Source: Escherichia phage vB_EcoS_MM-1. From it: a DNA stretch of 64,000 nucleotides. Shown here piece after piece: positions 1 through 40,798 of the stretch (position 1 is the stretch's first letter; every line of letters begins with the position of its first letter). The notes beneath the pieces were generated by a model. That model was not told where the DNA came from. It did not search any database and saw only the letters and a program-made list of their open reading frames with translations. The position numbers were made by a program, and so were the translations under genes. The stretch lies in sequence record PV577657. The stretch is one strand, 5' to 3'.

Positions 1-98
1 CTTCGCCTAAGCCATTCAGCCAACGGTCGATTTATCTTGTTCTGTCATGTTGCTTCTCCAGTTCAATTTATGTAATTATTATACAGAACTTTTGGAAA

Positions 99-386
99 CT
101 AAGCAACTACATTTTTTAAAAATTTGATGCCTTTCTTTTTCTTCTTATATTTCCACGTTAAGGGATTCTGTCGATTATGAACGCTTGAGATCTTTGTCTC
201 GTCAAAGTTCTTCAATATCATGTAATCACAGGATAATTGTTCTAATGGAATGTGATCACCGTCAAAAGCGTATACATAAGGCTGTTGACTAGCACGATAA
301 TGATAGACTTTGTTAATTCTACGTTTCAGCAACTTATCCGCGCAGTAAATAAAGAAGTTTTCAGGATGCATCAGCAGCTCCCTCAA
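99..386 (-). CDS. hypothetical early protein
   Basis: 95-aa ORF; GGAG-type RBS before internal Met suggests alternative start near 371; no recognisable motif. Confidence 0.55.
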   Translation of the reverse strand: MRELLMHPENFFIYCADKLLKRRINKVYHYRASQQPYVYAFDGDHIPLEQLSCDYMILKNFDETKISSVHNRQNPLTWKYKKKKKGIKFLKNVVA

Positions 387-469
387 TTTGGTGCACCCTG
401 TTCGTATCGAACGAACCTCTCAAGCTCTTCAGGCAAGCGCTAATCCATCTCAGCTAAAGGTGCAAATTT

Positions 470-546
470 TGGCAAACCTACTAGGACTTGAACCTAGACC
501 GTACGGTTTTGGAGACCGACATGCTGTCCAGTAACACTCTAGGAAT
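470..546 (-). tRNA. tRNA-like gene, possibly anticodon CCA (Trp); degenerate acceptor stem
   Basis: Encoded CCA (TGG on + strand), perfect T-arm CTAGG/TTCAAGT/CCTAG, anticodon-like loop CTCCAAA; acceptor stem has 2 mismatches. Confidence 0.4.
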
Positions 547-553
547 GCAGGAT

Positions 554-630
554 TGGCGTCCTGTGCGGGGATCGAACCCACAAATCCTACCTTGAAAGGG
601 TAGTGACTTTACCAGTTTGTCTAACAGGAC
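554..630 (-). tRNA. tRNA-Glu (anticodon UUC)
   Basis: 7-bp acceptor GTCCTGT/ACAGGAC, T-loop TTCGATC, anticodon stem CTACC/GGTAG with loop CUUUCAA, encoded CCA. Confidence 0.7.
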
Positions 631-637
631 TTAAATT

Positions 638-728
638 TGGTGTTGGATGATGGAGTCGAACCACCCGAGACCCTTCCGAGTCGGCAGATTTACAGTCTGC
701 TTCGCTACCTCTACGATACTAATCCAAC
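638..728 (-). tRNA. tRNA-Tyr (anticodon GUA), long variable arm
   Basis: Acceptor GTTGGAT/ATCCAAC, anticodon arm GCAGA-CUGUAAA-UCUGC (same as the E. coli tRNA-Tyr anticodon arm as I recall it), 88 nt class II, encoded CCA. Confidence 0.7.
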
Positions 729-856
729 ATATTTAAAAGTATTCAAATACTAGTTTAAACACTTTTAGATATGTTTCCAAATTAGATAACTATTATATCA
801 AGTTTTATGGCACTGAGCAAGTCAAATTTTAAAGAACTTGCTCAGTGCTGTATTAG

Positions 857-1132
857 TTAGTCGAACTTAGGAGCGACAGTTAAGGAGAATGGAAGTTCGA
901 AAACTTCTTCGCCCTCATCACTAACAGTAATTACACGACCTTTAAGTTCAGACATTGAAATATCAATATCAGCTTTTGCATCTGGAGCCATGCCAGCTTC
1001 AATACATTTAGCTTTAACTTCCGGCAGAAGTTCTACATCGTAGAAATAAAGCCATTCAATCTCACCTTCCCAGCCTTCCCAGGATTTACAGATTGCACTT
1101 TCAATACCAGTTGCTATAACACGATTTTGCAT
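857..1132 (-). CDS. hypothetical early protein
   Basis: 91-aa ORF with AAGGAG RBS and upstream T5-type promoter. Confidence 0.65.
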   Translation of the reverse strand: MQNRVIATGIESAICKSWEGWEGEIEWLYFYDVELLPEVKAKCIEAGMAPDAKADIDISMSELKGRVITVSDEGEEVFELPFSLTVAPKFD

Positions 1133-1139
1133 TCGTTAA

Positions 1140-1200
1140 CTCCTTCATCAATTTATATAACTATTATACCAGAAATTTAAAGCAAAAGGCAAGTACATTT
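1140..1200 (-). promoter_or_regulatory. T5-type early sigma70 promoter
   Basis: Minus-strand TATAAT followed by conserved ATAAATTGATGAAGGAG initial transcribed region/RBS. Confidence 0.5.
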
Positions 1201-1222
1201 TTAAAAATTCTGTTTGGAGGAG

Positions 1223-1429
1223 CTAAACTCCAGATTCTTCAGCTAAGTCTAGGCTAATAAGAGATATAGCCATAATTGCTGCTCCGTGTTCTCTTTCTCC
1301 TGTCTCTTTAGCTAGGGTTATAATATCAAGAAATTGCTTATGAAAGTCTGCAACCTCTTGAGTCATACCTGCCTCAGCAATCATGCCTTTAAGCATGAAA
1401 CGTTGTGCGGTAATTTCGGGATTAGCCAT
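1223..1429 (-). CDS. hypothetical protein
   Basis: 68-aa ORF, GGAGAAA RBS. Confidence 0.6.
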   Translation of the reverse strand: MANPEITAQRFMLKGMIAEAGMTQEVADFHKQFLDIITLAKETGEREHGAAIMAISLISLDLAEESGV

Positions 1430-1589
1430 GTTGTTTCTCCAGTTTCATGTTTAATAGTCTACAAATAAAATCAATGTCTTCATCTGTGCCTAGATCTCTA
1501 TCTTCAAGAGTTGCCTTGAAGTTTTTCGTCAATTCCATGAGGATAACTTCTCTAGAACGACGTGTTGGCGGAGGTGGATGTCTATACAT
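1422..1589 (-). CDS. small hypothetical protein (55 aa, PPPP motif)
   Basis: Hand-translated ORF MYRHPPPPTRRS... with AAGGA RBS; stop overlaps next start (ATGGCTAA); below ORF-track cutoff. Confidence 0.35.
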   Translation of the reverse strand: MYRHPPPPTRRSREVILMELTKNFKATLEDRDLGTDEDIDFICRLLNMKLEKQHG

Positions 1590-1604
1590 CTTATTTCCTT
1601 AAGT

Positions 1605-1681
1605 TGGTAGGGGTGGTGGGATTCGAACCCACAAAACCTGAATTTTAAGTCCAGTACCTATGCCAATTCGATTACACCCCC
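1605..1681 (-). tRNA. tRNA, anticodon tentatively UAA (Leu-like) but class I length
   Basis: Perfect T-arm GTGGG/TTCGAAT/CCCAC, G1-U72 acceptor, anticodon loop CUUAAAA; D-arm does not fold cleanly by hand. Confidence 0.5.
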
Positions 1682-1782
1682 ATGTAATCAGTTTATTAGT
1701 TGATACATATTATAGCCTAGTGAAAATCCTACTACTAGTCCCACAAACCAACCAATATAATAATCTTTTAGTTTCACAGGTA

Positions 1783-1968
1783 TTATCCTCGTTCAATATC
1801 TAGGGAAACACCGCAGTTAGGATTAATACCTGTACCGTTGCAATTTGAACAAATCCAGATATTGCAAAAAGTATCTCCTGCTTCTGCATCAGAACTTTCA
1901 CCAATTCCCCTACACTCAGGGCAGGCACATTCTTCTAGCTCTTGCTTGAGTTCTTGAAACTTGGACAT
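1783..1968 (-). CDS. small Cys-rich protein, putative zinc ribbon
   Basis: 61 aa with CxCPxC...CxxxxCxxC...C spacing. Confidence 0.6.
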   Translation of the reverse strand: MSKFQELKQELEECACPECRGIGESSDAEAGDTFCNIWICSNCNGTGINPNCGVSLDIERG

Positions 1969-2186
1969 ATAGTCTCCTTAGTCAATTACTTTTGAGGCTT
2001 CAAGGGAGTCGATATAGTATACGTTTTCTACCATAATCATATAATCTGCCACTTTATCCATAGCTTGGGCCTCAGAGGTAGCTCTGGCTAACCTATATCC
2101 TTTTTTATATTCATCCGGGTATTCTCTATCTTGAATAAATACAACATAAACTATGTATAATTCCACTTGTAATCCCCTAATTAAGT

Positions 2187-2264
2187 TGGTGGCTCCCCGA
2201 GGATTCGAACCTACGTACCTTCCGGTTATGAGCCGGGTGCTCATACCATATGAGCTTGAGAACC
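2187..2264 (-). tRNA. tRNA with CAU anticodon (Met or Ile2)
   Basis: D-arm GCTC-ATATGGTAT-GAGC, anticodon arm CCGG-CUCAUAA-CCGG, T-loop TTCGAAT, acceptor with two G-U pairs, encoded CCA. Confidence 0.6.
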
Positions 2265-2270
2265 AGAATT

Positions 2271-2359
2271 TGGCGGAAGAAGTGGGAATCGAACCCACAA
2301 GGCTATATTTCAAACCGACAGATTAGCAATCTGCTGCAATACCGTTATGCTATTCTTCC
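2271..2359 (-). tRNA. tRNA-Ser (anticodon GCU), class II
   Basis: Acceptor GGAAGAA/TTCTTCC, anticodon arm GCAGA-UUGCUAA-UCUGU, long variable arm, T-arm GTGGG/TTCGATT/CCCAC. Confidence 0.6.
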
Positions 2360-2380
2360 GAATTTATAAGATATATTATA

Positions 2381-2902
2381 TTAGAAATTTAGCTTCATAG
2401 CAAGAAAATTTTTCAAGTTTTCGGTAGACATCTCATCCACATCTACGGGAGAAACAAAGCCGTTTAATTTTCTAGCAAATTTTTCACCCGCAGGATCGTT
2501 GTCTCCGACAGCTACCAATTTAAAAGGTAATAATTTCAGTTGCTTTAATAACGCTTTTCCTGGAGAAGAACCTAACATTGCCAGGGCTGGATAACCAGCG
2601 TTATGTAGCGCAACTGCCTTAAATACAGATTCAGCGATCAATACTACTTTTTCATCTCCATTGAGAGTTTCTAGTCCCCATACACACTGGGTAGTAGAAT
2701 AAGTAAAATATTTAGCTTCAAAGGGACACTTACCATGACCTTTTGGAGCAGAAGGATTATACGTCTGATAGCCTCGCAACATCCCGGAGAAGTCATACAA
2801 CGGGACTGTTAGCCATCCTTCCGGACTTAACCAGCAATGATATTTATCTGTATCAAATCCTCTGGATAAGAGGTGCTGTGTTAGCTCATCAACATTCATA
2901 TT
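2381..2902 (-). CDS. Toprim-domain protein (stand-alone primase-like/nuclease-like fold)
   Basis: Conserved Glu (IAES) and GDNDPAG DxD motif; likely start MNVDELTQ after GAGAGGAA RBS. Confidence 0.6.
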   Translation of the reverse strand, partial: NMNVDELTQHLLSRGFDTDKYHCWLSPEGWLTVPLYDFSGMLRGYQTYNPSAPKGHGKCPFEAKYFTYSTTQCVWGLETLNGDEKVVLIAESVFKAVALHNAGYPALAMLGSSPGKALLKQLKLLPFKLVAVGDNDPAGEKFARKLNGFVSPVDVDEMSTENLKNFLAMKLNF

Positions 2903-2904
2903 TG

Positions 2905-2990
2905 GTTCCTCTCTCAAATTTATAGATATATTATACAGAGAATTTAGCATTCAAGCAATCAAATTTTTTAACTTTTTAGAGGAAAATCAT
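2905..2990 (-). promoter_or_regulatory. T5-type early promoter
   Basis: Minus-strand TTGCTT -17- TATAAT, then conserved ATCTATAAATTTGAGAGAGGAA. Confidence 0.6.
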
Positions 2991-3069
2991 AGGGCACTTA
3001 AGGGTAGCAGATAAGTGGGGAGGACCAAAATTTGTGACCCCACTAAAAATCCGGGGGCAATTTTTAAAG

Positions 3070-3110
3070 ACCCCTTGACATTTTCGCTGGGGTAGTGTAA
3101 AGTATATGTT
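3070..3110 (+). promoter_or_regulatory. sigma70-like promoter of counter-oriented island
   Basis: TTGACA at 3075-3080; AT-rich -10 candidates 17-23 bp downstream. Confidence 0.4.
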
Positions 3111-3165
3111 ATGGATGAGTGATCAAAGAGACACACATTTTCTATATACTAGGAGGTGTCAAAAT

Positions 3166-4155
3166 ATGACAGAAGAAGTAGCTAAGAGTCCTGAGACCGT
3201 CGCTAGCGTTGCAGCAGAACTGCACCGTCACGAGGAATCAGATAAGAAAAAGTGGGAGAAGGTCAGAGCCTACGAAGAAAAACATCGTGAACACGATGAT
3301 GAAGAAGAAGATGACGATGATGAACATTGTCATAAATATGGAAAACATAAAATGCAAGAACCAGTAAACGTATTCACTAGTGGCTTCCCTGGCCTACTGG
3401 GTGGTTACCCAGCAAACGCAGGTGCTTTCGGTGGTGAAGGTATGGGACTATTCGGAGCTATCCTAATCGGTGCTCTATTAACCGGCGGATTCGGTGGTTT
3501 CGGTGGATTCGGTGGACGTGGTGTAGTTGGTGAAGGTACCGCAGTTGATGCAGTACTTCAGAACCAAGATACCGCTAGTATTCTAGCAGCTATCAACACT
3601 ACTCGTACAGAGGCTAACCAGGGTACTGGAGCTGTTTTAAGCGCAGTTAACAATGGTTTTAGCCAGACAACCCAAAACCAGAGCCGTGATACTCAGTCTG
3701 TACTAACTACGATCTACGGTACAGATGCTAATCTGTCTAATCAGATCTGCCAGGAAACTCGCAACGTTATTCAGGGTCAGTTCGATCTTTCTCGCCAGAT
3801 TGATCAATCTTTCGCAGCTAACCAGATAGCTCGTGCACAAGATAAGTTTGATTCTGCACAGATCGCTTTCCAGCAGACTTTACAAACTAATAACCAGTTT
3901 GCCGCTGTTCAGGCTCAGATGTGTGCTAACCAGAACTCTCTGGAACGTCAGATCGCTGAATGTTGCTGTGAACTTCAGACTGCGATCGCTGGTGTAACTA
4001 CTGCGCGTATCCAGGATGAGTTAGACGCATGTCGCCTACGTGAAGCAATCGCTGCGGGTAGCGGTGCTAACGGTCAGGTAATTAATCAAATCGCTTTAAG
4101 TCTTGGTGCTATCACTCAGACTCTGGCTGGTCTGCAGGCTAAACTGCCGGCTTAA
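3166..4155 (+). CDS. acidic N-terminus / Gly-zipper hydrophobic segment / Q,N,T-rich coiled-coil protein
   Basis: AGGAGG RBS before MTEEV; D/E-rich N-terminus with HCH motif; GGFGGFGGFGG segment; host-optimal codons. Confidence 0.7.
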   Translation: MTEEVAKSPETVASVAAELHRHEESDKKKWEKVRAYEEKHREHDDEEEDDDDEHCHKYGKHKMQEPVNVFTSGFPGLLGGYPANAGAFGGEGMGLFGAILIGALLTGGFGGFGGFGGRGVVGEGTAVDAVLQNQDTASILAAINTTRTEANQGTGAVLSAVNNGFSQTTQNQSRDTQSVLTTIYGTDANLSNQICQETRNVIQGQFDLSRQIDQSFAANQIARAQDKFDSAQIAFQQTLQTNNQFAAVQAQMCANQNSLERQIAECCCELQTAIAGVTTARIQDELDACRLREAIAAGSGANGQVINQIALSLGAITQTLAGLQAKLPA

Positions 4156-4176
4156 TATTAAGGGGAGGAGCCCATT

Positions 4177-4593
4177 ATGAGTAAATATGGTTTTGTAAAT
4201 AACGGACTTAATCAAAGTATGGGCTCCCAGCAGCCCATTCCGGGTCTGGATAACCCCTACTTACAACAGTTGCAACAGCGTTTAGCAGAAGCGCAACAGA
4301 TGCAGCAACAACTCCAGCAAAACCCTGGAAGTGTGAGTCCTATGCAAATGATGCAGCAAATGAGCGGGCAGTCGCAAATGCCTCAACAAATGCAGCAACA
4401 GGTGCCTCAGCAGCAAGTTCAGCAACAAACCCAACAACCGCAGGTTTCTGCGGAAGGACAGGCAGTACTAGCCCTTTTCGAAGACTTCGCAAAGACAGAG
4501 GATGGGAAACAGCTTGTATCACTTATGGGTAAGTTTAATAGCTTCTGCCAAAGCCAAGTTGCAAAAGCTCAAAATGGGGGTAGTAACTCCTAA
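4177..4593 (+). CDS. glutamine-rich low-complexity protein
   Basis: 138 aa, long Q-rich tracts (QQMQQQLQQ..., QQVPQQQVQQQTQQPQ); strong RBS GGGGAGGAG. Confidence 0.7.
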   Translation: MSKYGFVNNGLNQSMGSQQPIPGLDNPYLQQLQQRLAEAQQMQQQLQQNPGSVSPMQMMQQMSGQSQMPQQMQQQVPQQQVQQQTQQPQVSAEGQAVLALFEDFAKTEDGKQLVSLMGKFNSFCQSQVAKAQNGGSNS

Positions 4594-4602
4594 GGAGGAA
4601 AT

Positions 4603-4797
4603 ATGTGTTGCAGAAAATCTGTTTCGTGCTGCCCAGTGCCTGTAGCACGTTGTTGCTCTCCAGCAATGTTTACGCAAATACCGGCGTTCAATCCCTTTGC
4701 CTTTAAGCCTACTCTTATCCTGCCCCCTAGAGTAGATTTTCAGTCAAGATTGGCCTCCCGTATGGGTGGTTGCTGTACACCGAGAGTATGGTTCTAA
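4603..4797 (+). CDS. small Cys-doublet-rich protein
   Basis: 64 aa with four CC doublets; RBS TAAGGAGG; directly precedes terminator. Confidence 0.55.
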   Translation: MCCRKSVSCCPVPVARCCSPAMFTQIPAFNPFAFKPTLILPPRVDFQSRLASRMGGCCTPRVWF

Positions 4798-4810
4798 ACC
4801 AAAAACAAAA

Positions 4811-4843
4811 GCCCCTGCCGAAAGGTAAGGGGCTTTTTCTTTT
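4811..4843 (+). terminator. rho-independent terminator
   Basis: GCCCCTGCC..GGTAAGGGGC hairpin followed by TTTTTCTTTT. Confidence 0.7.
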
Positions 4844-4850
4844 GCCTTAA

Positions 4851-4888
4851 ATACAGAAAAGCCCGCGCTCTCGTAGGAAACGCGGGCT
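4851..4888 (-). terminator. rho-independent terminator for SPFH gene
   Basis: GCCCGCG...CGCGGGC hairpin; T-run on minus strand. Confidence 0.65.
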
Positions 4889-4912
4889 TGGTTCGAAGAT
4901 TACGTGTAACTA

Positions 4913-5860
4913 TTACTTGTTACGCATATCCATGATCATTTGACCATCGTAGCCAGTACCTACCACAGTCTGAGGTACACCACCTTGATACTTCTGAGCA
5001 CGGATCATTTCAACTTCCAGTTGTTTCCAACGAATCATTTCAGGAGTAATGGTACGTTGCAATGCGGCGTTAGCTTCAGCTTCTTTCTTAGCTGCGTACA
5101 GTTTAGCATCTGCGTCACGTTCATTAGCAATAGCTTGGTTGTTACGAGCTTCACGATCTGCTTCTGCTTGTTTAACTTTTTGCTGTGCTTCCTGTTCAAC
5201 GCGAGCAAGTTCAGCTTTCGCAGCATTAACTTGCTCTTCACGAACTTTGGTATTCTGTACCTGTTCCATGATTACTGGCGGCAAGGTAATATCCTGAAGG
5301 AATACCTGCTTAACTGTGTAACCATATGGGCGCGCATACTCTTCAACTTCCTGTTGAATTGCAGTTTGCAATTGAGCCTGAATTTTAGCATCAAATAAAT
5401 CTTGTGCTTTAGGTACAGACTTACCAAACTCACGAATAGTAGACAGTAATTTTTCAGTTACATACTTGTCTAGTGCCTGATCCTGAGTACCTGCGTTAAT
5501 ACGGTTAATCGGTGCTTTAGAACCATCAAACTGCAACATAACAGTCAGGTCAACAGTGGATTTAAACTTATCCTGGCTAGGAACCTGAAGTTTATCTAAT
5601 TTTACAGCAATATCTTTTGTACTAAAAGTATCGAAAGATGCAAACGGGTTTACAAGATGGAAGCCCGGCAATACTGGATTAGGGTCTACTTTACCCAGGA
5701 ATGTTTGGGTTTTAACCGTACCATCAGAAACAATAGTATATGAATTAAAAGCTAGGATTAAACCTGCTAAACCAACTACAGCACCAATACCCCAACGTTT
5801 AATAGTACGAATTACTTTCTGCTCAGAAGTCAGTTCTTTCATATTTTTAGTAGCAAACAT
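4913..5860 (-). CDS. SPFH/band-7 (prohibitin/HflC-like) membrane protein
   Basis: N-terminal TM segment (WGIGAVVGLAGLILAF), SPFH-like core, C-terminal A/E/K/Q-rich coiled coil. Confidence 0.75.
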   Translation of the reverse strand: MFATKNMKELTSEQKVIRTIKRWGIGAVVGLAGLILAFNSYTIVSDGTVKTQTFLGKVDPNPVLPGFHLVNPFASFDTFSTKDIAVKLDKLQVPSQDKFKSTVDLTVMLQFDGSKAPINRINAGTQDQALDKYVTEKLLSTIREFGKSVPKAQDLFDAKIQAQLQTAIQQEVEEYARPYGYTVKQVFLQDITLPPVIMEQVQNTKVREEQVNAAKAELARVEQEAQQKVKQAEADREARNNQAIANERDADAKLYAAKKEAEANAALQRTITPEMIRWKQLEVEMIRAQKYQGGVPQTVVGTGYDGQMIMDMRNK

Positions 5861-5894
5861 ATATTTCCTTTGTTTTAGTTACAGTTAATAAAAT

Positions 5895-5969
5895 TGGCCG
5901 AGGTGACAGGATTCGAACCTGCATAAAGGAATTTAGAAGACTCCTGCCTCTCCCTTAGACTACACCCCG
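5895..5969 (-). tRNA. tRNA-Arg (anticodon UCU)
   Basis: Acceptor CGGGGTG/CACCTCG (1 mismatch), anticodon arm GGAGU-CUUCUAA-AUUCC, T-loop TTCGAAT, encoded CCA. Confidence 0.55.
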
Positions 5970-6472
5970 TTTAAGTATTTTTAAGAACTCTCGTAAAAAC
6001 TCTTAAAAATACAGACGATACCGGGAGAGTCATAAGTCTCACTCATTAAGTATTTCAAGACAAAATACAGTAACGTCTATTATTTTCCAGTTTAAGTCAG
6101 GGTGACTTAGTGGTTATGTCCTGCGGTATATTGAGGACTCGGTTAGGCTTGGGGTCATGACTTCCCACCTTTTGCTGCTACTCAACAGGAGTTATCGCGA
6201 ATTACCTGTGCTATTGTGCACCATTAGTGACATCTCTCATGTCAGCATTTCCCACTTTGTGGATAGCTTGAAAAACTACTCCGATATGGAGAAAGAACTT
6301 CACTATCCTAGAATACCTTCTAAAGTTCTTCTTTAGCCTGGACATAGTTAAATCGTAATAAAACTATTCAGCAGACTGGTTGGTTAGTCTGGAACCAACT
6401 ACCGCGTGGTTTAGGCAGTGCGCAACTAACCTCGGAAGCTTTTATGTTAAAAGCATCAGTTATCCAGTTCTT

Positions 6473-6545
6473 ACCGACCGTAGGATTCGAACCTACATCT
6501 TCCACCAGTTACGGCTTGATAATACCAATTATACTAGGACGGCAG
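6473..6545 (-). tRNA. tRNA-like element (perfect T-arm, no clean anticodon arm)
   Basis: GTAGG/TTCGAAT/CCTAC T-arm with partial acceptor pairing; possibly degenerate. Confidence 0.35.
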
Positions 6546-6744
6546 TGTTACTACATAAGTGATTTCCACACCCCACTATTTATAAATCAGAGAAGAGTTT
6601 AGGGGAGAGGTTTCAGACGCCTCATTTTACACGTTCTAGCCACTAACCGGGATTGCCGCCCCCTGTGTACTAGTTTTACAACTAACCCACCGACTCTATT
6701 CAATGCGCTCCGGTTGGGATTCTGCACTCAGCGTAATCGGCTCG

Positions 6745-6800
6745 CTGTTCCCTAATTTATGAATATATTATACAGAATTTATAAGCATTTAGCAAATGAA
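6745..6800 (-). promoter_or_regulatory. T5-type early promoter driving leftward transcript into noncoding/tRNA region
   Basis: Minus strand TTGCTA -17- TATAAT then ATATTCATAAATTAG. Confidence 0.55.
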
Positions 6801-6803
6801 TTT

Positions 6804-7238
6804 TTAGAAAAATTCACTAGCAATCAAAGCAGTTGTTTTACCGTCATAACGTCCGGGAAATTCTGCCTTAATAGTTTTCATTAATAGAGCTTTGGTAATA
6901 CCTGGGTTTAATTTAACCAGTTCTGCAAAATACTCACGAATCTGAACCTCAGTCAGTTGACTTGGCTGATACTCTTGCAGCATGGAATAAAGCAGTTGCT
7001 CATAGTCTACATCAGTAGGAACTTCCATACCAACTTTAATAGCGCGTTGTTTTGCATTTTCTAGAGCCTTAATCTGAGCTTTCAGATAGGCTACGAACTC
7101 GGTTCGAGTAACAATGTCTTTATCAATACGTTGCAGATCACCAATCATGGTCTGAAGATTAAGTGCCCGTTCCTTATCACCGTGAGTACGTGCTAGACTA
7201 AGTAGTGCACGAAGGGTCATTAGAATATTTTCACCCAT
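6804..7238 (-). CDS. hypothetical protein
   Basis: 144-aa ORF, no recognised motif. Confidence 0.7.
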   Translation of the reverse strand: MGENILMTLRALLSLARTHGDKERALNLQTMIGDLQRIDKDIVTRTEFVAYLKAQIKALENAKQRAIKVGMEVPTDVDYEQLLYSMLQEYQPSQLTEVQIREYFAELVKLNPGITKALLMKTIKAEFPGRYDGKTTALIASEFF

Positions 7239-31822: not shown

Positions 31823-32095
31823 GTGAAAAAGATAAGTATAAGTACACTTAAACCTTTCCCGTACATCGGACAGCCTCTTATACTTATGTGGGAGGAGAAG
31901 ATTAATGGGGAAAAGTATACTAAAACTAGAAGTGGGTATAAGCTGACTTCACTTCATTACGAAAAAGAAGTATTAGTAGCTGAAATATACTCTCCGTTGT
32001 CAGATAGGCTAGTAAAAACTACATATTTGCATCGTTGCAAAAATTATACATGGCACGGATCCACTAGACAACCCTCATACTGTGAGGCAGAATAA
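31823..32095 (+). CDS. hypothetical protein
   Basis: 90-aa ORF, GTG start after GAGGG. Confidence 0.6.
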   Translation: MKKISISTLKPFPYIGQPLILMWEEKINGEKYTKTRSGYKLTSLHYEKEVLVAEIYSPLSDRLVKTTYLHRCKNYTWHGSTRQPSYCEAE

Positions 32096-34049: not shown

Positions 34050-34809
34050 ACTGAACTGGAACGTAGAAGGTGTAACCGAGTCTCTGAAAGCAAAAGCCAC
34101 TGCTCTGGGTGTTTCTGTAATCTCTCAAGAACAAGTAGCTGCTATCGCTGCTGAACTGGCTGCTGAAACTGGCAAAGATGTTACTGCTCGCTCTGTTGGC
34201 TCTAAACTGCGTAAAGAAGGTTTTGAAGTACAGAAAGCTAACGAAGTACAGAAATCCCCGTGGACTCCTGAGCAGGAAGCTGAACTGGTTGATTTCCTGA
34301 ACGCTCATGCTGGTCAGTATACCTATGCTGAAATCGCTGCTGCTGTAGCTGGTGGTCAGTTCGGTGCTAAACAGGTACAGGGTAAGATCCTGAGTCTGGA
34401 AATGACCGCTTCTGTTAAACCAACTGAAAAAGCTGCTGCTGTTCGTTCCTTTACTCCGGATGAAGAAACTGATTTTGTTAATCAGGTTGTTGCTGGTGCT
34501 ACTATTGAAGCTATCGCTGCTCACTTCGGTCGTAATATCAAGCAGATCCGTGGTAAAGCTCTGAGCCTGCTTCGTGAAGGTCGTATCGCTGCTATGCCGG
34601 TACAGGAAACTTCCAGTGCTAAAACTCGTGAAGATCTGTTAGAAGGTCTGGATCTGGTTAACATGACTGTTGCTGAGATCGCTGAGAAAACTGGTAAGTC
34701 TGAGCGCGGTGTTAAATCTATGCTGTCTCGTCGTGGTCTGGTTGCTAAGGACTATGATGGTGCCGCTAAGCGTGCTAAACTGGATGCAAAAGCTGCGGCT
34801 GCTGAATAA
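34042..34809 (+). CDS. DNA-binding protein with four tandem HTH-like repeats (D5-like)
   Basis: Four internal repeats of about 40 aa; Ala-rich; host-optimal codons. Confidence 0.65.
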   Translation: MSKLNWNVEGVTESLKAKATALGVSVISQEQVAAIAAELAAETGKDVTARSVGSKLRKEGFEVQKANEVQKSPWTPEQEAELVDFLNAHAGQYTYAEIAAAVAGGQFGAKQVQGKILSLEMTASVKPTEKAAAVRSFTPDEETDFVNQVVAGATIEAIAAHFGRNIKQIRGKALSLLREGRIAAMPVQETSSAKTREDLLEGLDLVNMTVAEIAEKTGKSERGVKSMLSRRGLVAKDYDGAAKRAKLDAKAAAAE

Positions 34810-34825
34810 TCTGGTAAATTAAACC

Positions 34826-34860
34826 TAAGGGGAGGGGGCTATGCTCCTTCCCCTTTTTGC
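34826..34860 (+). terminator. rho-independent terminator
   Basis: AAGGGGAGGGGG...CTCCTTCCCCTT hairpin + TTTT. Confidence 0.65.
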
Positions 34861-34891
34861 ATTTAGAAGGCACGAAAGCGTGCAAAGGAGA

Positions 34892-36364
34892 ATGACCTTG
34901 TTTAACGTGCAAGCTGTAGTGTTGAAGATGCTTCTAGCTTCTGAACAGAAGCAAATAGCATTGGAAACATTCTCAAAACTGCATAAAGATCATTTTAATG
35001 ACGCTTTCTCCTCAATTTACCAAGCCGTCCAGAATTATTATAAAAAATATAACACAATGCCGTCCATTGACGCACTGATGCTTGAGGCTAATAGGAACGC
35101 CCGCCTTTCTCAAGCTCTAGTCGTTTTAGCTAACACTCAAATTCCAGAAGTGAGCATGGAACAGGCACTTGAAGTCCTAGAGGCCGAATATACACAGGAT
35201 TTATTCCTAAAGCTTCTAGAAACAGACGTGCTTCAAGATTTAACAATGCTGGATCAGGGAGAAATTCTCAACCGAGTTGCCTCCCTTCACTTAAAATTAG
35301 AAGAGAAAGTAACGAATACTGGAAAAGTATTCAACGCAGATAACATGCGTATTTTCCAGAGAGAAGAAGATACCAAACTGAACCTAATCGCTCTTGGTAT
35401 TTGTAATGAGTTCGACGCTCAAATTGGTTTAGCTCGCACAGAAACGTTACTGCTTGGTGGTTGGCGTGGTACTGGTAAATCCATTATCTGTTCAAACATA
35501 CAGGTTCAGCAATATTTGAATGGAGATATTGCTCCATACTTCTCAATTGAGATGAAAGAACATGAAGTATTTAGACGTAATCTAGCCATGCTAGCTGGTG
35601 TATCAGCACTAGCAATGCGTAATAATACTCTAGAAGGTGCAGCTCTGTTGAGACTAGCCAGAACTAGAGCTAGGATGTTCAACGGTGGTGAAGAGCTTTT
35701 CGATAACTTCGTTAAACAGTATACAATGGCTAAGATGAGTGATTTCTACGATATGGAGAGTAAGCTAATAGAAGGGTATGAGCTACATACTCCTATGATT
35801 ATTGTTTATGACCCTGAGTTGTCTATTACAACAGTTGACGTAGAATTAAATAAATTAGTTGCTAGATATGGTGATAAAGTTACAGTAGCTCTACTTGACT
35901 ATATTAACCAAACCCGACTTCCAGACTCTAAAACCATTGATATGTATGACTGGAAAGAACAGATGGTTGTTAGCTCGTCTTTCAAATCTATCTGCCAGAA
36001 ACATAACGTGGCTGGCGTAGCTCCTTACCAGATCGATCAAGACGGTAGAACACGTATGTCAAAGGGGATTCTTGATTCCGCAGACATGGCTGCTAATCTT
36101 AATGCTGCAAAAGCTGATAATGGTCAAGGTGCTATTATGTTTGACTTCGTTAAGACTCGTTCTTCTGATAGCGTGAAGTTTATGCCTAAAATGAACTGGG
36201 AAACTCTGCGAATGGATAACACTACCAACCTAGCAATGGAAGATATATCTCAAATGGAAGCTGAGTTCGTTATCCCTATTGAGAAGGATAAGCCGGCTCA
36301 ACCTAAACGTGCTAAGAAAGACAAAGCTGAAAATTCAACAGGTGAACAGGCCAGCGATATATGA
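34892..36364 (+). CDS. replicative helicase (DnaB/RecA-fold ATPase-like)
   Basis: Walker A GGWRGTGKS; start at MTLFNV after AAAGGAG (ORF-track 34841 overlaps terminator). Confidence 0.65.
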   Translation: MTLFNVQAVVLKMLLASEQKQIALETFSKLHKDHFNDAFSSIYQAVQNYYKKYNTMPSIDALMLEANRNARLSQALVVLANTQIPEVSMEQALEVLEAEYTQDLFLKLLETDVLQDLTMLDQGEILNRVASLHLKLEEKVTNTGKVFNADNMRIFQREEDTKLNLIALGICNEFDAQIGLARTETLLLGGWRGTGKSIICSNIQVQQYLNGDIAPYFSIEMKEHEVFRRNLAMLAGVSALAMRNNTLEGAALLRLARTRARMFNGGEELFDNFVKQYTMAKMSDFYDMESKLIEGYELHTPMIIVYDPELSITTVDVELNKLVARYGDKVTVALLDYINQTRLPDSKTIDMYDWKEQMVVSSSFKSICQKHNVAGVAPYQIDQDGRTRMSKGILDSADMAANLNAAKADNGQGAIMFDFVKTRSSDSVKFMPKMNWETLRMDNTTNLAMEDISQMEAEFVIPIEKDKPAQPKRAKKDKAENSTGEQASDI

Positions 36365-36894
36365 TAACACAGGAAAGGCTAAAAGAGTTATTTGATTACT
36401 CCCCAGGAACTGGGGAGTTTACTAGAAAAGTATCTAGAGGTAATCAGAAAGCTGGTAGTATAGCTGGTTCTTTAAGAAAAGATGATTATATATGTATATG
36501 GGTAGATGGAAAGCCTTACTATGCGCATCAACTAGCTTTTCTCTATATGGAAGGTTATTTACCTGAAGAAGTAGACCATATAAACCGTATACGAAGTGAT
36601 AATCGTTGGGTTAACCTTAAAGATTCTTCTCACCAAGAGAATAGCAGGAATAAAGCAGCTAAAAGTAAATCAGGGTATATAGGAGTTAGTTGGAATAAAC
36701 AAAGGCAAAAATGGCAAGTTCAACTAAGAGATACCAATAAAAAGAAAATATTCGGTGGATATTTTGAGTACCAGAATTTAGAATCAGCAGTAGATAAGAT
36801 TAATAATCTACGATTACAATTTCATGGGGAAAATGCTATTCAAGAAATATTCGACCCGTCTAATTATCCTGCATTAGAGGAGATAAATTCATGA
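36361..36894 (+). CDS. HNH homing endonuclease
   Basis: VDHINRIRSDNRWVNL HNH motif; overlaps helicase stop and primase start. Confidence 0.8.
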   Translation: MITQERLKELFDYSPGTGEFTRKVSRGNQKAGSIAGSLRKDDYICIWVDGKPYYAHQLAFLYMEGYLPEEVDHINRIRSDNRWVNLKDSSHQENSRNKAAKSKSGYIGVSWNKQRQKWQVQLRDTNKKKIFGGYFEYQNLESAVDKINNLRLQFHGENAIQEIFDPSNYPALEEINS

Positions 36895-37781
36895 GTAGAA
36901 TAACAGAATTACTTGATCTTAAGGGAATTGAGTATAAAGATACTGGTGGAGATATTTTAATCTGTTGCTTAAATCCATATCATGATGATAAACACCCAAG
37001 TTTGCGTATTGATCCTGAAACCGGGATTATGCACTGCTTGAGTTGCGGTTTTGGCAAAGGTATACCTAGTATTTATCATTATTTTAATGAGACTCAATAT
37101 AGACAATCTCCAAGACTATCCCAAGTACGTAAAAAGATTTCAGAGATTAGAAATGGATCTACGAATCTTGCAATCCCAGAATCTGCCTGCCTTTTCGAAG
37201 GTGATTTCCGAGGTATAAGTTCTAAGACCTTGAAGAAATATTTTGCTTTCCAACACCAAGAGAACTGGGAAGGCAGAATTGTATTCCCAATCACAGATGC
37301 TGTTGGACGCAATATCCTATTTTTGGGTCGTTCTATAAACAGTTCTGCCCCTCCTAAATACTTAGTAAAACCAAAACAGGTTTCACCACCAATTTTCCCT
37401 GTACGATATAATACTCCAGTTCTTATTCTAGTTGAAGGTATCTTTGATATGCTGAACCTAGAGGATAGTGGTATAGACTATGCTTCTTGCTGCTTTGGTA
37501 CACATCAGTTTACTTCAGACAACATTGCAGATAAGTTCAGTCCGTACATTATTGCTGGTGTTAAAGTTGTTGTTATCTTACTAGATAATGATGCTTCTGG
37601 TAATAAAGCTGCACAAGCACTGGCCAAGCTAATTCGTACAAAAACGCGTTTAACACCTGTAGTTGCTAACTTTCTTCTGCCTGAAGGTAAAGACCCAGGT
37701 GACTTAAATAAAGAAGAAATTGATATGTTAGCAAAACGTATTGAAATTTTAGTTGCTGAATCGCTTAAAGATTTGGTATAA
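36891..37781 (+). CDS. DnaG-type DNA primase (CHC2 Zn finger + Toprim)
   Basis: C-x2-H...C-x2-C zinc finger; Toprim EGIFD and LLDNDASG. Confidence 0.85.
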   Translation: MSRITELLDLKGIEYKDTGGDILICCLNPYHDDKHPSLRIDPETGIMHCLSCGFGKGIPSIYHYFNETQYRQSPRLSQVRKKISEIRNGSTNLAIPESACLFEGDFRGISSKTLKKYFAFQHQENWEGRIVFPITDAVGRNILFLGRSINSSAPPKYLVKPKQVSPPIFPVRYNTPVLILVEGIFDMLNLEDSGIDYASCCFGTHQFTSDNIADKFSPYIIAGVKVVVILLDNDASGNKAAQALAKLIRTKTRLTPVVANFLLPEGKDPGDLNKEEIDMLAKRIEILVAESLKDLV

Positions 37782-37807
37782 TAGTCCTAAATAACTGAGG
37801 AGTTACT

Positions 37808-38137
37808 ATGGAATATGTATATATTTATGCGGATGTTCCAGTGTATGATAGTATAACACACAAAGAGGTTAAACTAGAGCGGTTTACAACACTGGAGTCC
37901 CTTAACAAACGAAAGAATTTCCATTTATTTGGTGATCCTAAATTACCTGCATCTTATATTTACTTTAAAGTAAAAGATACAGGTCAAGAGGTATACCTAA
38001 CATATGATTGGGCTGTTGTAGAAAATACTGAGCAATCTATGAAAGCGCTAGATGCTTTTCTGCGCATAGATGAAGAATTTCGGGTACTAGAAAAGCAGCG
38101 CAATGAAATGCGTAAATTACTTCACACATATAAATAG
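37808..38137 (+). CDS. hypothetical protein
   Basis: 109-aa ORF. Confidence 0.6.
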   Translation: MEYVYIYADVPVYDSITHKEVKLERFTTLESLNKRKNFHLFGDPKLPASYIYFKVKDTGQEVYLTYDWAVVENTEQSMKALDAFLRIDEEFRVLEKQRNEMRKLLHTYK

Positions 38138-38140
38138 TAT

Positions 38141-38200
38141 TTGCTATTATCCCAATATTTTGATATAATATATTGGTAAGTTAGAGAAGAAACACTGAAG
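38141..38200 (+). promoter_or_regulatory. T5-type promoter upstream of DNA polymerase
   Basis: TTGCTA -17- TATAAT. Confidence 0.6.
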
Positions 38201-38230
38201 TTATACTTACTTACCAAGAGGAGATTAAAT

Positions 38231-40798
38231 TTGAAAATCGCAGTAGTTGATAAAGCTCTAAATAACACTCGTTACGATAAACATTTCCAGCTATATGGCG
38301 AGGAAGTTGATGTATTTCATATGTGTAACGAGAAGTTATCTGGTCGTTTGCTTAAAAAGCACATTACTATTGGAACACCAGAAAACCCATTTGATCCGAA
38401 TGATTACGATTTTGTTATACTAGTAGGTGCTGAACCTTTCCTGTATTTCGCAGGTAAGAAAGGCATTGGTGACTATACTGGTAAACGTGTAGAGTATAAT
38501 GGATATGCTAACTGGATTGCGAGTATCAGCCCAGCCCAGTTACACTTTAAACCTGAAATGAAACCAGTTTTCGATGCAACAGTAGAAAATATCCACGATA
38601 TTATCAATGGTCGTGAGAAGGTTGCAAAAGCTGGTGATTACCGTCCTATTACTGACCCTGACGAGGCGGAAGAATATATCAAGATGGTGTATAATATGGT
38701 TATCGGACCTGTCGCATTCGACTCCGAAACCTCAGCACTATACTGTCGAGATGGTTATCTGCTTGGTGTTTCTATGTCTCACCAAGAGTATCAGGGTGTA
38801 TATATCGATTCTGATTGTCTCACCGAGGTTGCAGTATATTATCTCCAGAAAATTCTGGATAGTGAAAACCACACTATTGTTTTTCACAACCTGAAGTTTG
38901 ATATGCACTTTTATAAGTACCATCTGGGACTTACTTTTGATAAAGCGCATAAAGAACGCAGGCTCCATGATACTATGTTGCAGCATTATGTTCTAGATGA
39001 ACGTCGTGGTACTCATGGCTTGAAATCTCTAGCAATGAAGTATACCGATATGGGTGACTATGACTTCGAACTAGATAAGTTCAAAGAGGATTACTGCAAA
39101 GCACATAAAATCAAGAAAGAAGATTTCACCTATGATTTAATTCCGTTTGATATTATGTGGCCTTACGCTGCGAAAGATACCGATGCTACCATACGTTTGC
39201 ACAACTTCTTCTTACCAAAAATTGAGAAGAATGAAAAACTTTGTAGTCTGTATTATGATGTCCTAATGCCTGGTTGTGTATTTCTCCAGCGTGTTGAGGA
39301 TCGTGGTGTACCTATTTCTATTGATCGTTTAAAAGAAGCTCAGTACCAGTTAACCCATAATCTGAATAAAGCTCGTGAAAAACTGTATACTTATCCAGAA
39401 GTCGTTCAGCTAGAGAAAGATCAGAACGAAGCGTTTAACCCAAACTCTGTTAAACAACTCCGTGTTCTTCTGTTTGATTATGTTGGCTTAACTCCAACAG
39501 GTAAATTGACGGATACTGGAGCAGATTCTACAGATGCAGAAGCTCTGAACGAATTGTCTACGCAGCATCCAATTGCTAAGACTCTACTAGAGATTCGTAA
39601 GCTAACTAAGCTGATCTCTACTTATGTTGAGAAGATTCTTCTGAGTATTGATGCAGATGGTTGCATTCGTACTGGTTTCCACGAACATATGACTACTTCT
39701 GGTCGTCTGAGTTCTTCCGGTAAACTGAACTTGCAACAGTTACCTCGTGATGAATCTATTATCAAGGGTTGTGTAGTAGCTCCTCCTGGGTATCGTGTAA
39801 TCGCATGGGACTTAACAACTGCGGAAGTTTATTATGCTGCTGTTCTATCTGGTGATAGAAATATGCAACAAGTATTTATCAACATGAGAAATGAACCAGA
39901 TAAATACCCCGACTTCCACTCTAACATCGCACACATGGTATTTAAGCTCCAATGCGAGCCTCGTGATGTTAAAAAGTTATTCCCAGCTCTGCGTCAAGCA
40001 GCTAAAGCAATCACCTTTGGTATTCTGTATGGTTCTGGCCCAGCTAAAGTAGCTCATTCTGTTAACGAAGCTCTTCTGGAACAGGCTGCTAAGACAGGCG
40101 AACCGTTTGTAGAGTGTACGGTTGCAGATGCTAAAGAGTATATAGAAACTTACTTCGGTCAGTTCCCGCAGCTTAAGCGTTGGATTGATAAGTGCCATGA
40201 TCAGATCAAGAATCATGGATTTATCTATAGTCACTTTGGTCGTAAACGTCGTCTGCATAATATCCACTCCGAAGACCGTGGTGTTCAAGGTGAAGAAATC
40301 CGTTCTGGATTTAACGCAATCATTCAGTCTGCTTCTTCTGATAGTCTCCTTTTAGGTGCTGTAGATGCAGATAATGAGATCATTTCTCTTGGCCTAGAAC
40401 AAGAGATGAAGATTGTTATGCTGGTTCACGACTCCGTAGTTGCTATTGTTCGTGAGGATTTGATCGACCAATACAATGAAATCCTAATTCGTAATATTCA
40501 GAAAGACCGCGGTATTAGTATTCCTGGCTGTCCGATTGGTATTGATTCAGATTCTGAAGCTGGAGGTTCTCGCGACTACTCTTGTGGTAAGATGAAGAAA
40601 CAGCACCCATCAATCGCTTGTATTGATGATGATGAATATACTCGTTATGTCAAGGGTGTATTACTTGATGCAGAATTCGAGTATAAGAAACTAGCTGCAA
40701 TGGATAAAGAGCATCCAGATCATAGCAAATACAAGGATGATAAGTTTATTGCTGTATGTAAAGATTTGGATAACGTGAGAAGGATTCTCGGTGCTTGA
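38231..40798 (+). CDS. family A DNA polymerase with 3'-5' exonuclease domain
   Basis: TTG start after AAGAGGAGA; exo and Pol A motifs; 855 aa, matching my recollection of T5 DNA polymerase. Confidence 0.9.
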   Translation: MKIAVVDKALNNTRYDKHFQLYGEEVDVFHMCNEKLSGRLLKKHITIGTPENPFDPNDYDFVILVGAEPFLYFAGKKGIGDYTGKRVEYNGYANWIASISPAQLHFKPEMKPVFDATVENIHDIINGREKVAKAGDYRPITDPDEAEEYIKMVYNMVIGPVAFDSETSALYCRDGYLLGVSMSHQEYQGVYIDSDCLTEVAVYYLQKILDSENHTIVFHNLKFDMHFYKYHLGLTFDKAHKERRLHDTMLQHYVLDERRGTHGLKSLAMKYTDMGDYDFELDKFKEDYCKAHKIKKEDFTYDLIPFDIMWPYAAKDTDATIRLHNFFLPKIEKNEKLCSLYYDVLMPGCVFLQRVEDRGVPISIDRLKEAQYQLTHNLNKAREKLYTYPEVVQLEKDQNEAFNPNSVKQLRVLLFDYVGLTPTGKLTDTGADSTDAEALNELSTQHPIAKTLLEIRKLTKLISTYVEKILLSIDADGCIRTGFHEHMTTSGRLSSSGKLNLQQLPRDESIIKGCVVAPPGYRVIAWDLTTAEVYYAAVLSGDRNMQQVFINMRNEPDKYPDFHSNIAHMVFKLQCEPRDVKKLFPALRQAAKAITFGILYGSGPAKVAHSVNEALLEQAAKTGEPFVECTVADAKEYIETYFGQFPQLKRWIDKCHDQIKNHGFIYSHFGRKRRLHNIHSEDRGVQGEEIRSGFNAIIQSASSDSLLLGAVDADNEIISLGLEQEMKIVMLVHDSVVAIVREDLIDQYNEILIRNIQKDRGISIPGCPIGIDSDSEAGGSRDYSCGKMKKQHPSIACIDDDEYTRYVKGVLLDAEFEYKKLAAMDKEHPDHSKYKDDKFIAVCKDLDNVRRILGA

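Follow-up and report, generated by a model that had tools for sequence, protein, structure and literature searches.

The tRNA gene cluster of Escherichia phage vB_EcoS_MM-1 follows the T5 pattern and includes a predicted tRNA-Leu(UAA) without the long variable arm

Introduction

The closest described counterpart of the locus analysed here is the transfer RNA (tRNA) gene region of bacteriophage T5 (AY543070, ~28-41 kb), which comprises 24 tRNA genes together with stable RNAs. We studied a cluster of tRNA genes in Escherichia phage vB_EcoS_MM-1 (PV577657), within a stretch of 64,000 nucleotides (nt) referred to below as the window; a first-pass annotation of the sequence had placed the cluster at positions 420-2360 and named six tRNA species in it. 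The expression and anti-defence roles of T5-family tRNAs are known from other phages of the group and are carried over to this phage by analogy: tRNA-Lys, tRNA-Thr and tRNA-Asn of T5 counter PARIS (PMC12409363), the tRNA-Tyr of phage SP15, transcribed from a very strong promoter, rescues the phage from retron-Eco7 PtuAB (Azam et al. 2024, PMC11555353), tRNA-Phe and tRNA-Ile(CAU) of T5 appear in RNA end-mapping of T5-infected cells (PMC13056530), and T5 tRNA-Phe has been studied as a substrate of the Escherichia coli phenylalanyl-tRNA synthetase (PMC9976931).

Type-I tRNA-Leu has been documented for animal mitochondria and for the tRNA-Leu(CAA) of Streptomyces coelicolor, the only bacterial type-I tRNA-Leu that was tested with the E. 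coli leucyl-tRNA synthetase (LeuRS) (PMC6614811). E. coli LeuRS requires A73, A15-U48, G18G19 and A20a, while the variable arm and the anticodon are dispensable (PMC9976931). The cluster described here is textbook T5 biology and is already in GenBank; the single overlooked variant in it is a tRNA-Leu(UAA) that is armless.

Results

The cluster within a T5-like tRNA gene region

Positions 1-7000 of the window are 100% identical to Escherichia phage vB_EcoS_MM-2 (PV577658.1, Tequintavirus; position 31893 of that record corresponds to window position 1), and many further T5-like phages of E. coli and Salmonella share 96-99.9% identity with the same segment. T5 positions 34738-35436, 35524-36371 and 37076-40985 correspond to window positions 31-737, 764-1611 and 2177-6107, respectively, with 87-92% identity. 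The T5 record lists, in this order and on the same strand, tRNA-Phe, Trp, Glu, Tyr, the promoter P14a, T5.072, P15c, T5.073, T5.074, hegA, tRNA-Ile2(CAU), tRNA-Ser3(GCU) and P15b. Taken as a whole, the segment very probably belongs to a T5-like coliphage (Tequintavirus) and forms the right-hand part of its tRNA gene region.

ARAGORN detected six minus-strand tRNAs in or touching 420-2360 (Phe-GAA, Trp-CCA, Glu-UUC, Tyr-GUA, Leu-UAA and Ser-GCU) and, beyond the cluster, Arg-UCU at 5895-5969 on the minus strand. The Rfam tRNA model RF00005 (gathering score 29 bits) gave seven matches in 389-2359 at 32.6-60.5 bits, each spanning model positions 1-71. Nine matches, with E-values down to 1e-11, make up all Rfam matches above the gathering score in the 64-kb window, and they lie on one strand within 6.5 kb. 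The six species named by the first-pass annotation are thus real (ARAGORN finds five and Rfam all of them, every one above 29 bits), and a seventh, tRNA-Phe(GAA), which straddles the left edge of 420-2360, had been overlooked; no locus falls below the threshold, as all seven exceed the gathering score. That these are phage genes transcribed leftward, as had been claimed, agrees with their location on the minus strand without exception, with the 100% match to a T5-like genome and with their collinearity with T5 and its annotated promoters. An encoded CCA, likewise claimed, could be read directly from the sequence of all seven genes (Table 1). All seven have U33, GG in the D loop and a T loop beginning with UUC, the exceptions at position 8 being G8 in tRNA-Trp and A8 in the CAU-anticodon tRNA.

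The stems are indeed non-canonical. The seven ARAGORN tRNAs of the window contain 17 G-U pairs and 9 unpaired stem positions (2.4 and 1.3 per tRNA), whereas E. coli K-12 tRNAs (n=23, one spurious 72-nt call being excluded) have ~0.9 and 0.1 each; the weak T stems attributed to several of the genes were, however, found in the CAU tRNA only. These irregularities are not noise, since the mismatches of tRNA-Phe also occur in its T5 counterpart, the mismatches of tRNA-Trp are invariant in 15 loci and the CAU tRNA carries a compensatory change. Comparison with the host isoacceptors (E. coli K-12 leuZ, tyrT, pheV, gltU, trpT, serV, ileX, argU and metT) showed 54-67% identity with the discriminator base and the anticodon unchanged. 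The anticodon loops of Trp, CAU and Arg are identical to those of the host, while position 32 differs in Leu and Ser and position 38 in Glu. Near-identical copies of the cluster tRNAs are extant in 14-25 of 27 T5-like loci, and the CAU, Glu and Trp stems show a compensatory or wobble-preserving change among these loci, although covariation within the T5-like relatives offers only few informative changes, 26 loci being too alike (94-100% at the anchor protein).

A predicted tRNA-Leu(UAA) of type I

The first-pass annotation had suggested that one gene reads UUA with a class I instead of a class II architecture, and the ARAGORN cloverleaf agrees: the molecule is 77 nt long and its variable region of 5 nt (GUUUU) fails the type-II criterion of a hairpin arm longer than 10 nt. 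Its Leu-type D-arm, its LeuRS identity set and its large family had not been recognised. The D-arm consists of a 3-bp stem and an 11-nt loop, GAAUUGGCAUA (G13 A14 A15 U16 U17 G18 G19 C20 A20a U21 A22), and aligns gaplessly to that of leuZ, unlike the D-arm of a generic class-I tRNA. With A14, A15, G18G19, A20a, U48 and A73 in place, the gene carries the full E. coli LeuRS identity set, namely A73, U8-A14, A15-U48, G18G19, A20a and the T-loop nucleotides U54, U55, C56 and A58. These features indicate a true leucine tRNA that would have lost its long variable arm. The host LeuRS is predicted to charge it, and the charged tRNA to decode UUA/UUG.

About 290 phage records contain the gene with 100% identity, among them those of the BASEL T5-like phages GreteKellenberger and TrudiRoth; T5 lacks it. 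A blastn search of 5,426 E. coli genomes returned only 23-nt T-arm matches on plasmids and no E. coli chromosomal relative, therefore a recent capture from the host is rejected. In MM-2 there is a further type-I Leu gene (UAG, 77 nt), located shortly upstream of the window at the site of the 85-nt type-II Leu-UAG of T5.

A family of type-I tRNA-Leu in phages and tRNA arrays

Relatives were sought with the pattern GAATTGG, 12-14 nt, YTBAR, 15 nt, GGTTCRANTCC, which requires a D loop of Leu type, an anticodon for Leu or Phe and the class-I spacing to the T loop. At least 120 viral contigs of IMG/VR matched; among the matches listed, ARAGORN recognised 125 tRNA-Leu of 74-78 nt (117 of them unique) with the anticodons UAG, UAA, CAA, CAG and GAG. 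In GTDB species genomes the pattern found at least 120 loci, many of them in dense arrays with 8-37 tRNAs per 8 kb. In at least 127 distinct 77-nt relatives U8, A20a, U48 and A73, which stand at columns not fixed by the pattern, are invariant. When 127 distinct 77-nt members were aligned to a class-I cloverleaf with a 3-bp D stem, 99.2% of the cells paired, changes on both sides occurred in 18 of the 20 pairs, and the covariation score was 0.943 as opposed to 0.226 for shuffles and at most 0.174 for slid partners. Such covariation points to a functional tRNA family under selection.

In T5-like phages Leu-UAA is of type I in 18 of 18 loci, while the Leu-UAG position is occupied by a type-I gene in 15 loci and by a type-II gene in 8, T5 included. 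These alternating alleles suggest that a type-I and a type-II tRNA-Leu can stand in for each other in the same hosts. Position 37 is A in most of the type-I Leu tRNAs with a NAG anticodon (loop CUUAGAA) but G in E. coli leuW (loop UUUAGGU). In CUN-reading tRNA-Leu of the host, G37 is methylated to m1G37; A37 would be another systematic difference between the anticodon loops of mobile and host tRNAs. In the open-access literature (including PMC10264068, PMC12482277, PMC4758250 and PMC8421152) a type-I tRNA-Leu in phages or tRNA arrays was not found, an absence that is not proof; the searches led to the S. coelicolor paper only.

We propose tentatively, and with somewhat less than even confidence, that this family is as yet undescribed, that it is large and distributed over many unrelated phages and tRNA arrays with five anticodon types and the LeuRS-read nucleotides kept, and that ordinary bacterial LeuRS, that of E. 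coli included, would charge an armless tRNA-Leu in vivo.

The other tRNAs of the cluster

In the CAU-anticodon tRNA, which ARAGORN misses, two pairs of the acceptor stem are G-U, positions 27 and 43 are mismatched (C27.A43) and the T stem is irregular, with either 3 bp and two mismatches or 4 bp, a bulge and a U.U pair. The T5 gene annotated as tRNAI2 (CAU) shares 97% identity with it; relative to that gene, the anticodon stem has one compensatory change from G-C to A-U. The G1-C72 pair of the phage tRNA and the lack of a triple G-C run in its anticodon stem (CCCGG/CCGGA) mark it as a non-initiator; the discriminator base is A73. It is probably an Ile2 tRNA, a predicted lysidine-dependent decoder of AUA.

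In tRNA-Phe the anticodon stem has the mismatches U28.U42 and U29.U41, which are also present in T5 tRNA-Phe, and the anticodon loop (CUGAAGA versus UUGAAAA in the host) differs at position 32 and at position 37, with G37 for A37. The Trp-like gene has A1-U72 and G73, its anticodon arm agrees with E. coli trpT at 15 of 17 positions, and its mismatches U2.U71, U3.U70 and U27.U43 are invariant across 15 T5-like loci. It is the weakest member of the cluster, and its activity in decoding is presumed. A gene in the Trp position of a T5-like contig (IMGVR_UViG_2974654585_000001, 12080-12156) has the anticodon CUA in place of CCA, by a single C-to-T change; this gene, called tRNA-Pyl by ARAGORN, could be a natural variant of amber-suppressor type or a sequencing error.

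The acceptor stem of tRNA-Tyr is a perfect 7 bp in the ARAGORN register, and its 17-nt anticodon arm is identical to that of E. coli tyrT. The low Rfam score of the gene is an artefact of a shifted alignment, so that the pseudogene flag it bears in the MM-2 record is wrong. A published 26-nt probe for the SP15 tRNA-Tyr matches window positions 659-684 exactly, which identifies the gene, as far as its sequence goes, as an SP15-type allele. According to the T5 record, an anticodon change turns Tyr, Ser3 and Ile2 into amber suppressors but does not do so for Phe, Trp, Glu and Arg. The synthetases for the Phe, Trp, Glu and Arg tRNAs read the anticodon, therefore the failure of these four is expected.

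At least six tRNA-Tyr alleles (81, 84, 87, two of 88, and 91 nt) occur at one position in T5-like phages that are otherwise 94-100% similar, and the Trp position of T5-like loci holds two unrelated alleles. Allele replacement is concentrated in the tRNA region, which in T5 lies beside genes of HNH homing endonucleases. The alternation of Tyr and Leu-UAG alleles among near-identical T5-like phages fits an arms race centred on the region.

Promoters, small open reading frames and corrections to annotation

A 61-nt AT-rich repeat has copies at 65-125, 779-839, 1150-1210, 2369-2421, 2917-2977 and 6754-6814. On the minus strand each copy contains an A-rich upstream tract, TTGCTx, a spacing of 17-18 nt and TATAAT, and matches the early promoters annotated in T5. 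The promoter nearest to tRNA-Ser is predicted to drive the Ser and CAU tRNAs, orf62, orf61, orf29, Leu-UAA, orf55 and orf68; the one nearest to tRNA-Tyr would drive Tyr, Glu, Trp and Phe, separated by 6-7-nt spacers, and then an open reading frame (ORF) at 99-371. A 565-bp module (1612-2176) with Leu-UAA, orf29, orf61 and orf62 occupies the place of T5 hegA.

Table 1 Features of the tRNA gene cluster in the window
Feature	Position	Strand	Length	Description
tRNA-Phe(GAA)	389-463	-	75 nt	CCA encoded; ARAGORN; Rfam 42.4 bits
tRNA-Trp(CCA)-like	470-546	-	77 nt	CCA encoded; ARAGORN; Rfam 36.3 bits
tRNA-Glu(UUC)	554-630	-	77 nt	CCA encoded; regular cloverleaf with 3-bp D stem; ARAGORN; Rfam 58.4 bits
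tRNA-Tyr(GUA)	638-728	-	91 nt	class II; CCA encoded; ARAGORN; Rfam 32.6 bits
Predicted promoter of the Tyr-Glu-Trp-Phe operon	792-820	-		TTGCTC, 17 nt, TATAAT, with TG upstream of the -10; counterpart of T5 P14a; inside repeat 779-839
Small ORF	857-1132	-	91 aa	T5.072 homologue; phrog_4551
Predicted promoter	1163-1192	-		TTGCCT, 18 nt, TATAAT; counterpart of T5 P15c
Two overlapping small ORFs (orf68, orf55)	1223-1589	-	68 aa and 55 aa	T5.073 and T5.074 homologues; phrog_5153 and phrog_7716
tRNA-Leu(UAA), type I	1605-1681	-	77 nt	CCA encoded; ARAGORN; Rfam 57.4 bits
orf29	1688-1777	-
orf61	1783-1968	-	61 aa	Cys-rich; phrog_6060, named 'anti-termination protein Q-like'
orf62	1978-2166	-	62 aa	GTG start after AGGGGA; phrog_10617
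CAU-anticodon tRNA	2187-2264 with CCA (Rfam 2190-2264)	-	78 nt	CCA encoded; Rfam 40.3 bits; missed by ARAGORN
tRNA-Ser(GCU)	2271-2359	-	89 nt	class II; CCA encoded; ARAGORN; Rfam 60.5 bits; identical to T5 tRNA-Ser3
Predicted promoter	2375-2403	-		TTGCTA, 17 nt, TATAAT; 16 nt upstream of tRNA-Ser; counterpart of T5 P15b

The first-pass annotation had regarded a 111-amino-acid (aa) ORF at 1978-2313 as probably not coding. This applies to its extension 2167-2313, which overlaps both tRNAs and is not coding because indels are found in 7 of 19 distinct alignments and codon periodicity is lacking; it does not apply to 1978-2166, which is a conserved 62-aa gene. orf62 matches the full 62-position profile of phrog_10617 (E 1e-42), phage EC148 uses the same gene model, and among T5-like loci 35 of the 71 variable sites fall on codon position 3 (~2.8 standard deviations above one third) with no indels. 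The 111-aa frame is a composite with a real core at 1978-2166.

Confirmation of the cluster mainly corrects annotation. In the MM-2 record (PV577658.1) tRNA-Tyr is truncated and flagged 'pseudo' (window 644-718), the coding sequence CDS0098 (window 1978-2244) is 78 nt too long and crosses the CAU tRNA, and the CAU tRNA itself (window 2190-2264) is labelled Met while the curated T5 record has Ile2.

Several elements were observed around these genes. On the minus strand, the 91-aa ORF is closely followed by a perfect 13-bp inverted repeat at 810-848 (GCACTGAGCAAGT ... ACTTGCTCAGTGC, with a 13-nt loop) that overlaps the -35 of the tRNA-Tyr promoter. With no U-run behind it, the repeat does not qualify as an intrinsic terminator of the standard kind; it may be a processing or stability element. 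At 4795-4849, between convergent genes, a G+C-rich inverted repeat (AAAAGCCCCT / AGGGGCTTTT) flanked by A and T runs is the counterpart of what the T5 annotation calls an efficient bidirectional rho-independent terminator; weak, meaningless Rfam matches (anti-hemB, ctRNA) also arose from it. A tRNA-like element on the minus strand at 6472-6543 (Rfam 35.5 bits; 'tRNA-OTHER' in GenBank records) has good acceptor, D and T arms without a proper anticodon stem or CCA. It is situated in an ORF-poor leader of ~800 nt (non-coding at ~5970-6750), between the T5-type promoter at 6754-6814 and tRNA-Arg(UCU), a stretch which corresponds to the T5 'RNAX', a stable RNA. Rightward, a 349-aa ORF at 3106-4155 on the plus strand, a T5.077 homologue, has an acidic His-rich N-terminal part, a Gln-rich C-terminal half and a Gly/Phe-rich repeat, GGFGGFGGFGG (DNA repeat 3422-3538); the next ORF, at 4177-4593, is extremely Gln-rich.

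Codon usage and counter-defence

Codon usage was compared between 62 long ORFs of the window and 27 E. coli ORFs as shares within each amino acid. The shares in phage and host sample were, respectively, 28% and 12% for UUA (Leu), 21% and 4% for CUA (Leu), 19% and 9% for AUA (Ile), 25% and 5% for AGA (Arg), and 20% and 13% for AGU (Ser). The earlier idea that the tRNA set compensates for codon usage holds for Leu-UAA, for the CAU tRNA if it is Ile2, and for Arg-UCU, the codons UUA, AUA and AGA being 2 to 5 times more used; it does not explain Phe, Trp and Glu, since their codons are not enriched. These three are better accounted for by the replacement of host tRNAs that have become depleted.

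Replacement of host tRNAs hit by nucleases, the other function that had been invoked, has literature support for this group of phages (PMC11555353, PMC12409363), to which the exact SP15 probe sequence in tRNA-Tyr can be added. Because the Tyr anticodon arm is identical to that of the host, the over-supply model (PMC11555353) fits better than resistance to cleavage.

Discussion

We propose that the tRNA genes and ORFs form two mixed operons, each transcribed from an early sigma-70 promoter on the minus strand. From a P15b-type promoter, the first would run through tRNA-Ser(GCU), tRNA(CAU), three small ORFs, tRNA-Leu(UAA) and two small ORFs; from a P14a-type promoter, the second would run through tRNA-Tyr, Glu, Trp and Phe with their short spacers and then a small ORF. 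The precursors would presumably be cut by host RNase P and 3' processing enzymes, and addition of CCA would be unneeded because it is encoded. Since host-type discriminator bases and anticodons are kept, charging by the host synthetases is presumed, including that of Leu-UAA by LeuRS for reading UUA/UUG. The tRNAs may serve in two ways, as extra decoders for codons which the AT-rich phage overuses and the host serves poorly (UUA, AUA and AGA, and CUA via the second Leu tRNA upstream of the window), and as diverged or over-expressed copies that would replace host tRNAs destroyed by defence nucleases. Gene identity, structure, conservation, synteny and codon bias are observed, while it is predicted that Leu-UAA is charged, that the CAU tRNA is modified with lysidine and that tRNA-Trp is active. 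The first-pass annotation was a correct account of a known system, and its functional ideas are those accepted for T5-family tRNAs, here partly borne out.

Some observations count against this account. The chief one, directed against charging of Leu-UAA by the host enzyme, is that E. coli LeuRS failed to charge the type-I tRNA-Leu(CAA) of S. coelicolor and was described as an enzyme for type II only (PMC6614811). Phage and host sample do not differ in the codon shares of Phe and Glu, nor is UGG (Trp) any commoner in the phage. tRNA-Trp has two adjacent U.U mismatches by the acceptor end and a minimum-energy fold that is not a cloverleaf, and the CAU tRNA is 67% identical to E. coli ileX and 65% to metT, a similarity that does not separate Ile2 from Met. 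The charging failure, together with the fact that cellular bacterial tRNA-Leu are all of type II save the Streptomyces case, would suit a 77-nt UAA tRNA that is no leucine acceptor, being either an uncharged decoy or regulator or a tRNA charged by another synthetase and recoding UUA/UUG. We hold this to be quite improbable: the D-arm is of the tRNA-Leu type, A73, A15-U48, A20a and U8-A14 are invariant in 127 relatives that have five Leu anticodon types and no other, the S. coelicolor tRNA has C48 where the phage family has U48, and type-I alleles of Leu-UAG give way to type-II alleles, and vice versa, among sister phages. Moreover, recoding of UUA would hit nearly every protein, since UUA is the commonest Leu codon in the sampled phage ORFs. 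The features of tRNA-Trp (U2.U71, U3.U70, a score of only 36.3 bits and its fold) invite the view that this gene above all, and perhaps the CAU gene, which escapes ARAGORN owing to its irregular T stem, are decaying pseudogenes or tRNA-like decoys, transcribed without a decoding role, that could act as a nuclease sponge or only as a processing signal; the T5 Trp gene is not convertible to an amber suppressor (T5 record), one relative has CUA at the Trp position, and T5 makes several tRNA-like stable RNAs whose function is not known, the counterpart of one lying nearby at 6472-6543. This is unlikely, although less so than a non-leucine UAA tRNA. In 15 (Trp) and 23 (CAU) of 27 T5-like loci these two genes have hardly changed and retain the encoded CCA and the identity bases of the host type; the anticodon stem of the CAU gene has a compensatory change, its T5 homologue acts as a suppressor after an anticodon change, and T5 tRNA-Ile(CAU) appears in RNA end-mapping of infected cells. 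The suppressor failure of Trp is the expected one and is shared by Phe, Glu and Arg in the T5 record. As to the fold, those of Trp and Leu-UAA are both non-cloverleaf, and the minimum-energy fold was given no weight as a test, because the cloverleaf of Leu-UAA is strongly backed by covariation.

Instead of a lysidine-modified decoder of AUA, the CAU tRNA might be an elongator tRNA-Met, the label it bears in the MM-2 and EC148 records. The tRNAscan-type annotation says Met, the near-equal similarity to metT and ileX is indecisive, and pair 4:69 is U-A, which we take to be the tRNA-Met state at a determinant of TilS. Pair 5:68, in turn, is C-G as in ileX, the 97% identical T5 gene is curated as tRNAI2 (CAU), T5-like phages carry separate Met and fMet genes, T5 itself among them, and AUA makes up 19% of Ile codons in the phage versus 9% in the host sample; assignment to Met is thus the less probable of the two, though of all the alternatives considered here it is the one we take most seriously. 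That the matches of the cluster are chance cloverleaf-like sequences in AT-rich phage DNA would find an argument only in the low scores of Tyr (32.6 bits, the alignment artefact) and Trp, and has a negligible probability; nine same-strand matches in 6.5 kb of 64 kb and the synteny with experimentally studied T5 tRNA genes already refute it.

With a cluster of true tRNA genes thus preferred, the interest that remains lies in the armless tRNA-Leu with its family and in the allelic turnover of the region (Tyr, Trp and Leu-UAG). Armless tRNA-Leu is a natural experiment on the dispensable parts of tRNA-Leu, and predicts that enterobacterial LeuRS accepts type-I substrates; if true, this would run against the published statement that E. 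coli LeuRS charges type II only. Type-I Leu would represent a tRNA lineage specific to mobile elements, which could help to spot tRNA genes derived from phages or arrays. Loss of the arm may be an adaptation of mobile tRNAs, for example an escape from factors recognising class-II tRNAs, and raises the question of whether it helps phage tRNAs to evade host defences that target tRNAs. Bacterial Schlafen was considered as such a class-II-specific enemy and found no support, since the Schlafen studied cuts the anticodon arms of type-I tRNAs (Lys, Ala, Met).

Comparison with known systems

Gene order, strand and promoter repeats in T5 are all as in this phage; Ser3 and Arg are identical, and Phe, Glu and Ile2 are 96-97% identical. 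T5 differs by the HNH endonuclease gene hegA, which stands where this phage has tRNA-Leu(UAA) and three small ORFs, by the lack of Leu-UAA (the sole T5 tRNA-Leu, UAG, being of type II and 85 nt long) and by other alleles of the Tyr and Trp genes. With the tRNA-Tyr of SP15 and T5 that acts against retron-Eco7, the gene of this phage shares the exact probe sequence and a strong T5-type promoter, and its anticodon arm is identical to that of the host; rescue by it is a prediction from sequence.

The host leuZ tRNA-Leu(UAA), of type II and 87 nt, resembles the phage tRNA in a D-arm that aligns without gaps (3-bp stem, loop GAAUYGG..A.A), in A73, G1.U72, U48 and the anticodon, and in an anticodon loop that differs only at position 32; overall identity is 54%, and the phage tRNA is without the 10-nt variable-arm hairpin of leuZ. 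The S. coelicolor type-I tRNA-Leu(CAA) (PMC6614811) and the human mitochondrial tRNA-Leu(UUR) likewise have a 5-nt variable loop and U8-A14. The Streptomyces tRNA belongs to a different lineage, because its position 48 is C and its synthetase does not use A73 as an identity element, whereas the phage family keeps A73, A15-U48 and A20a and, unlike the Streptomyces tRNA, is mobile, occurring in phages and in horizontally spread tRNA arrays. Such horizontally transferred bacterial L-arrays, for example the trn operon of Anabaena (PMC8421152, PMC4758250), resemble the cluster in their dense same-strand tRNA genes linked to homing endonucleases. While they are chromosomal or plasmid-borne and mostly silent, the genes studied here belong to a virulent phage with strong early promoters; the type-I tRNA-Leu family is shared by the L-arrays of bacteria and this phage.

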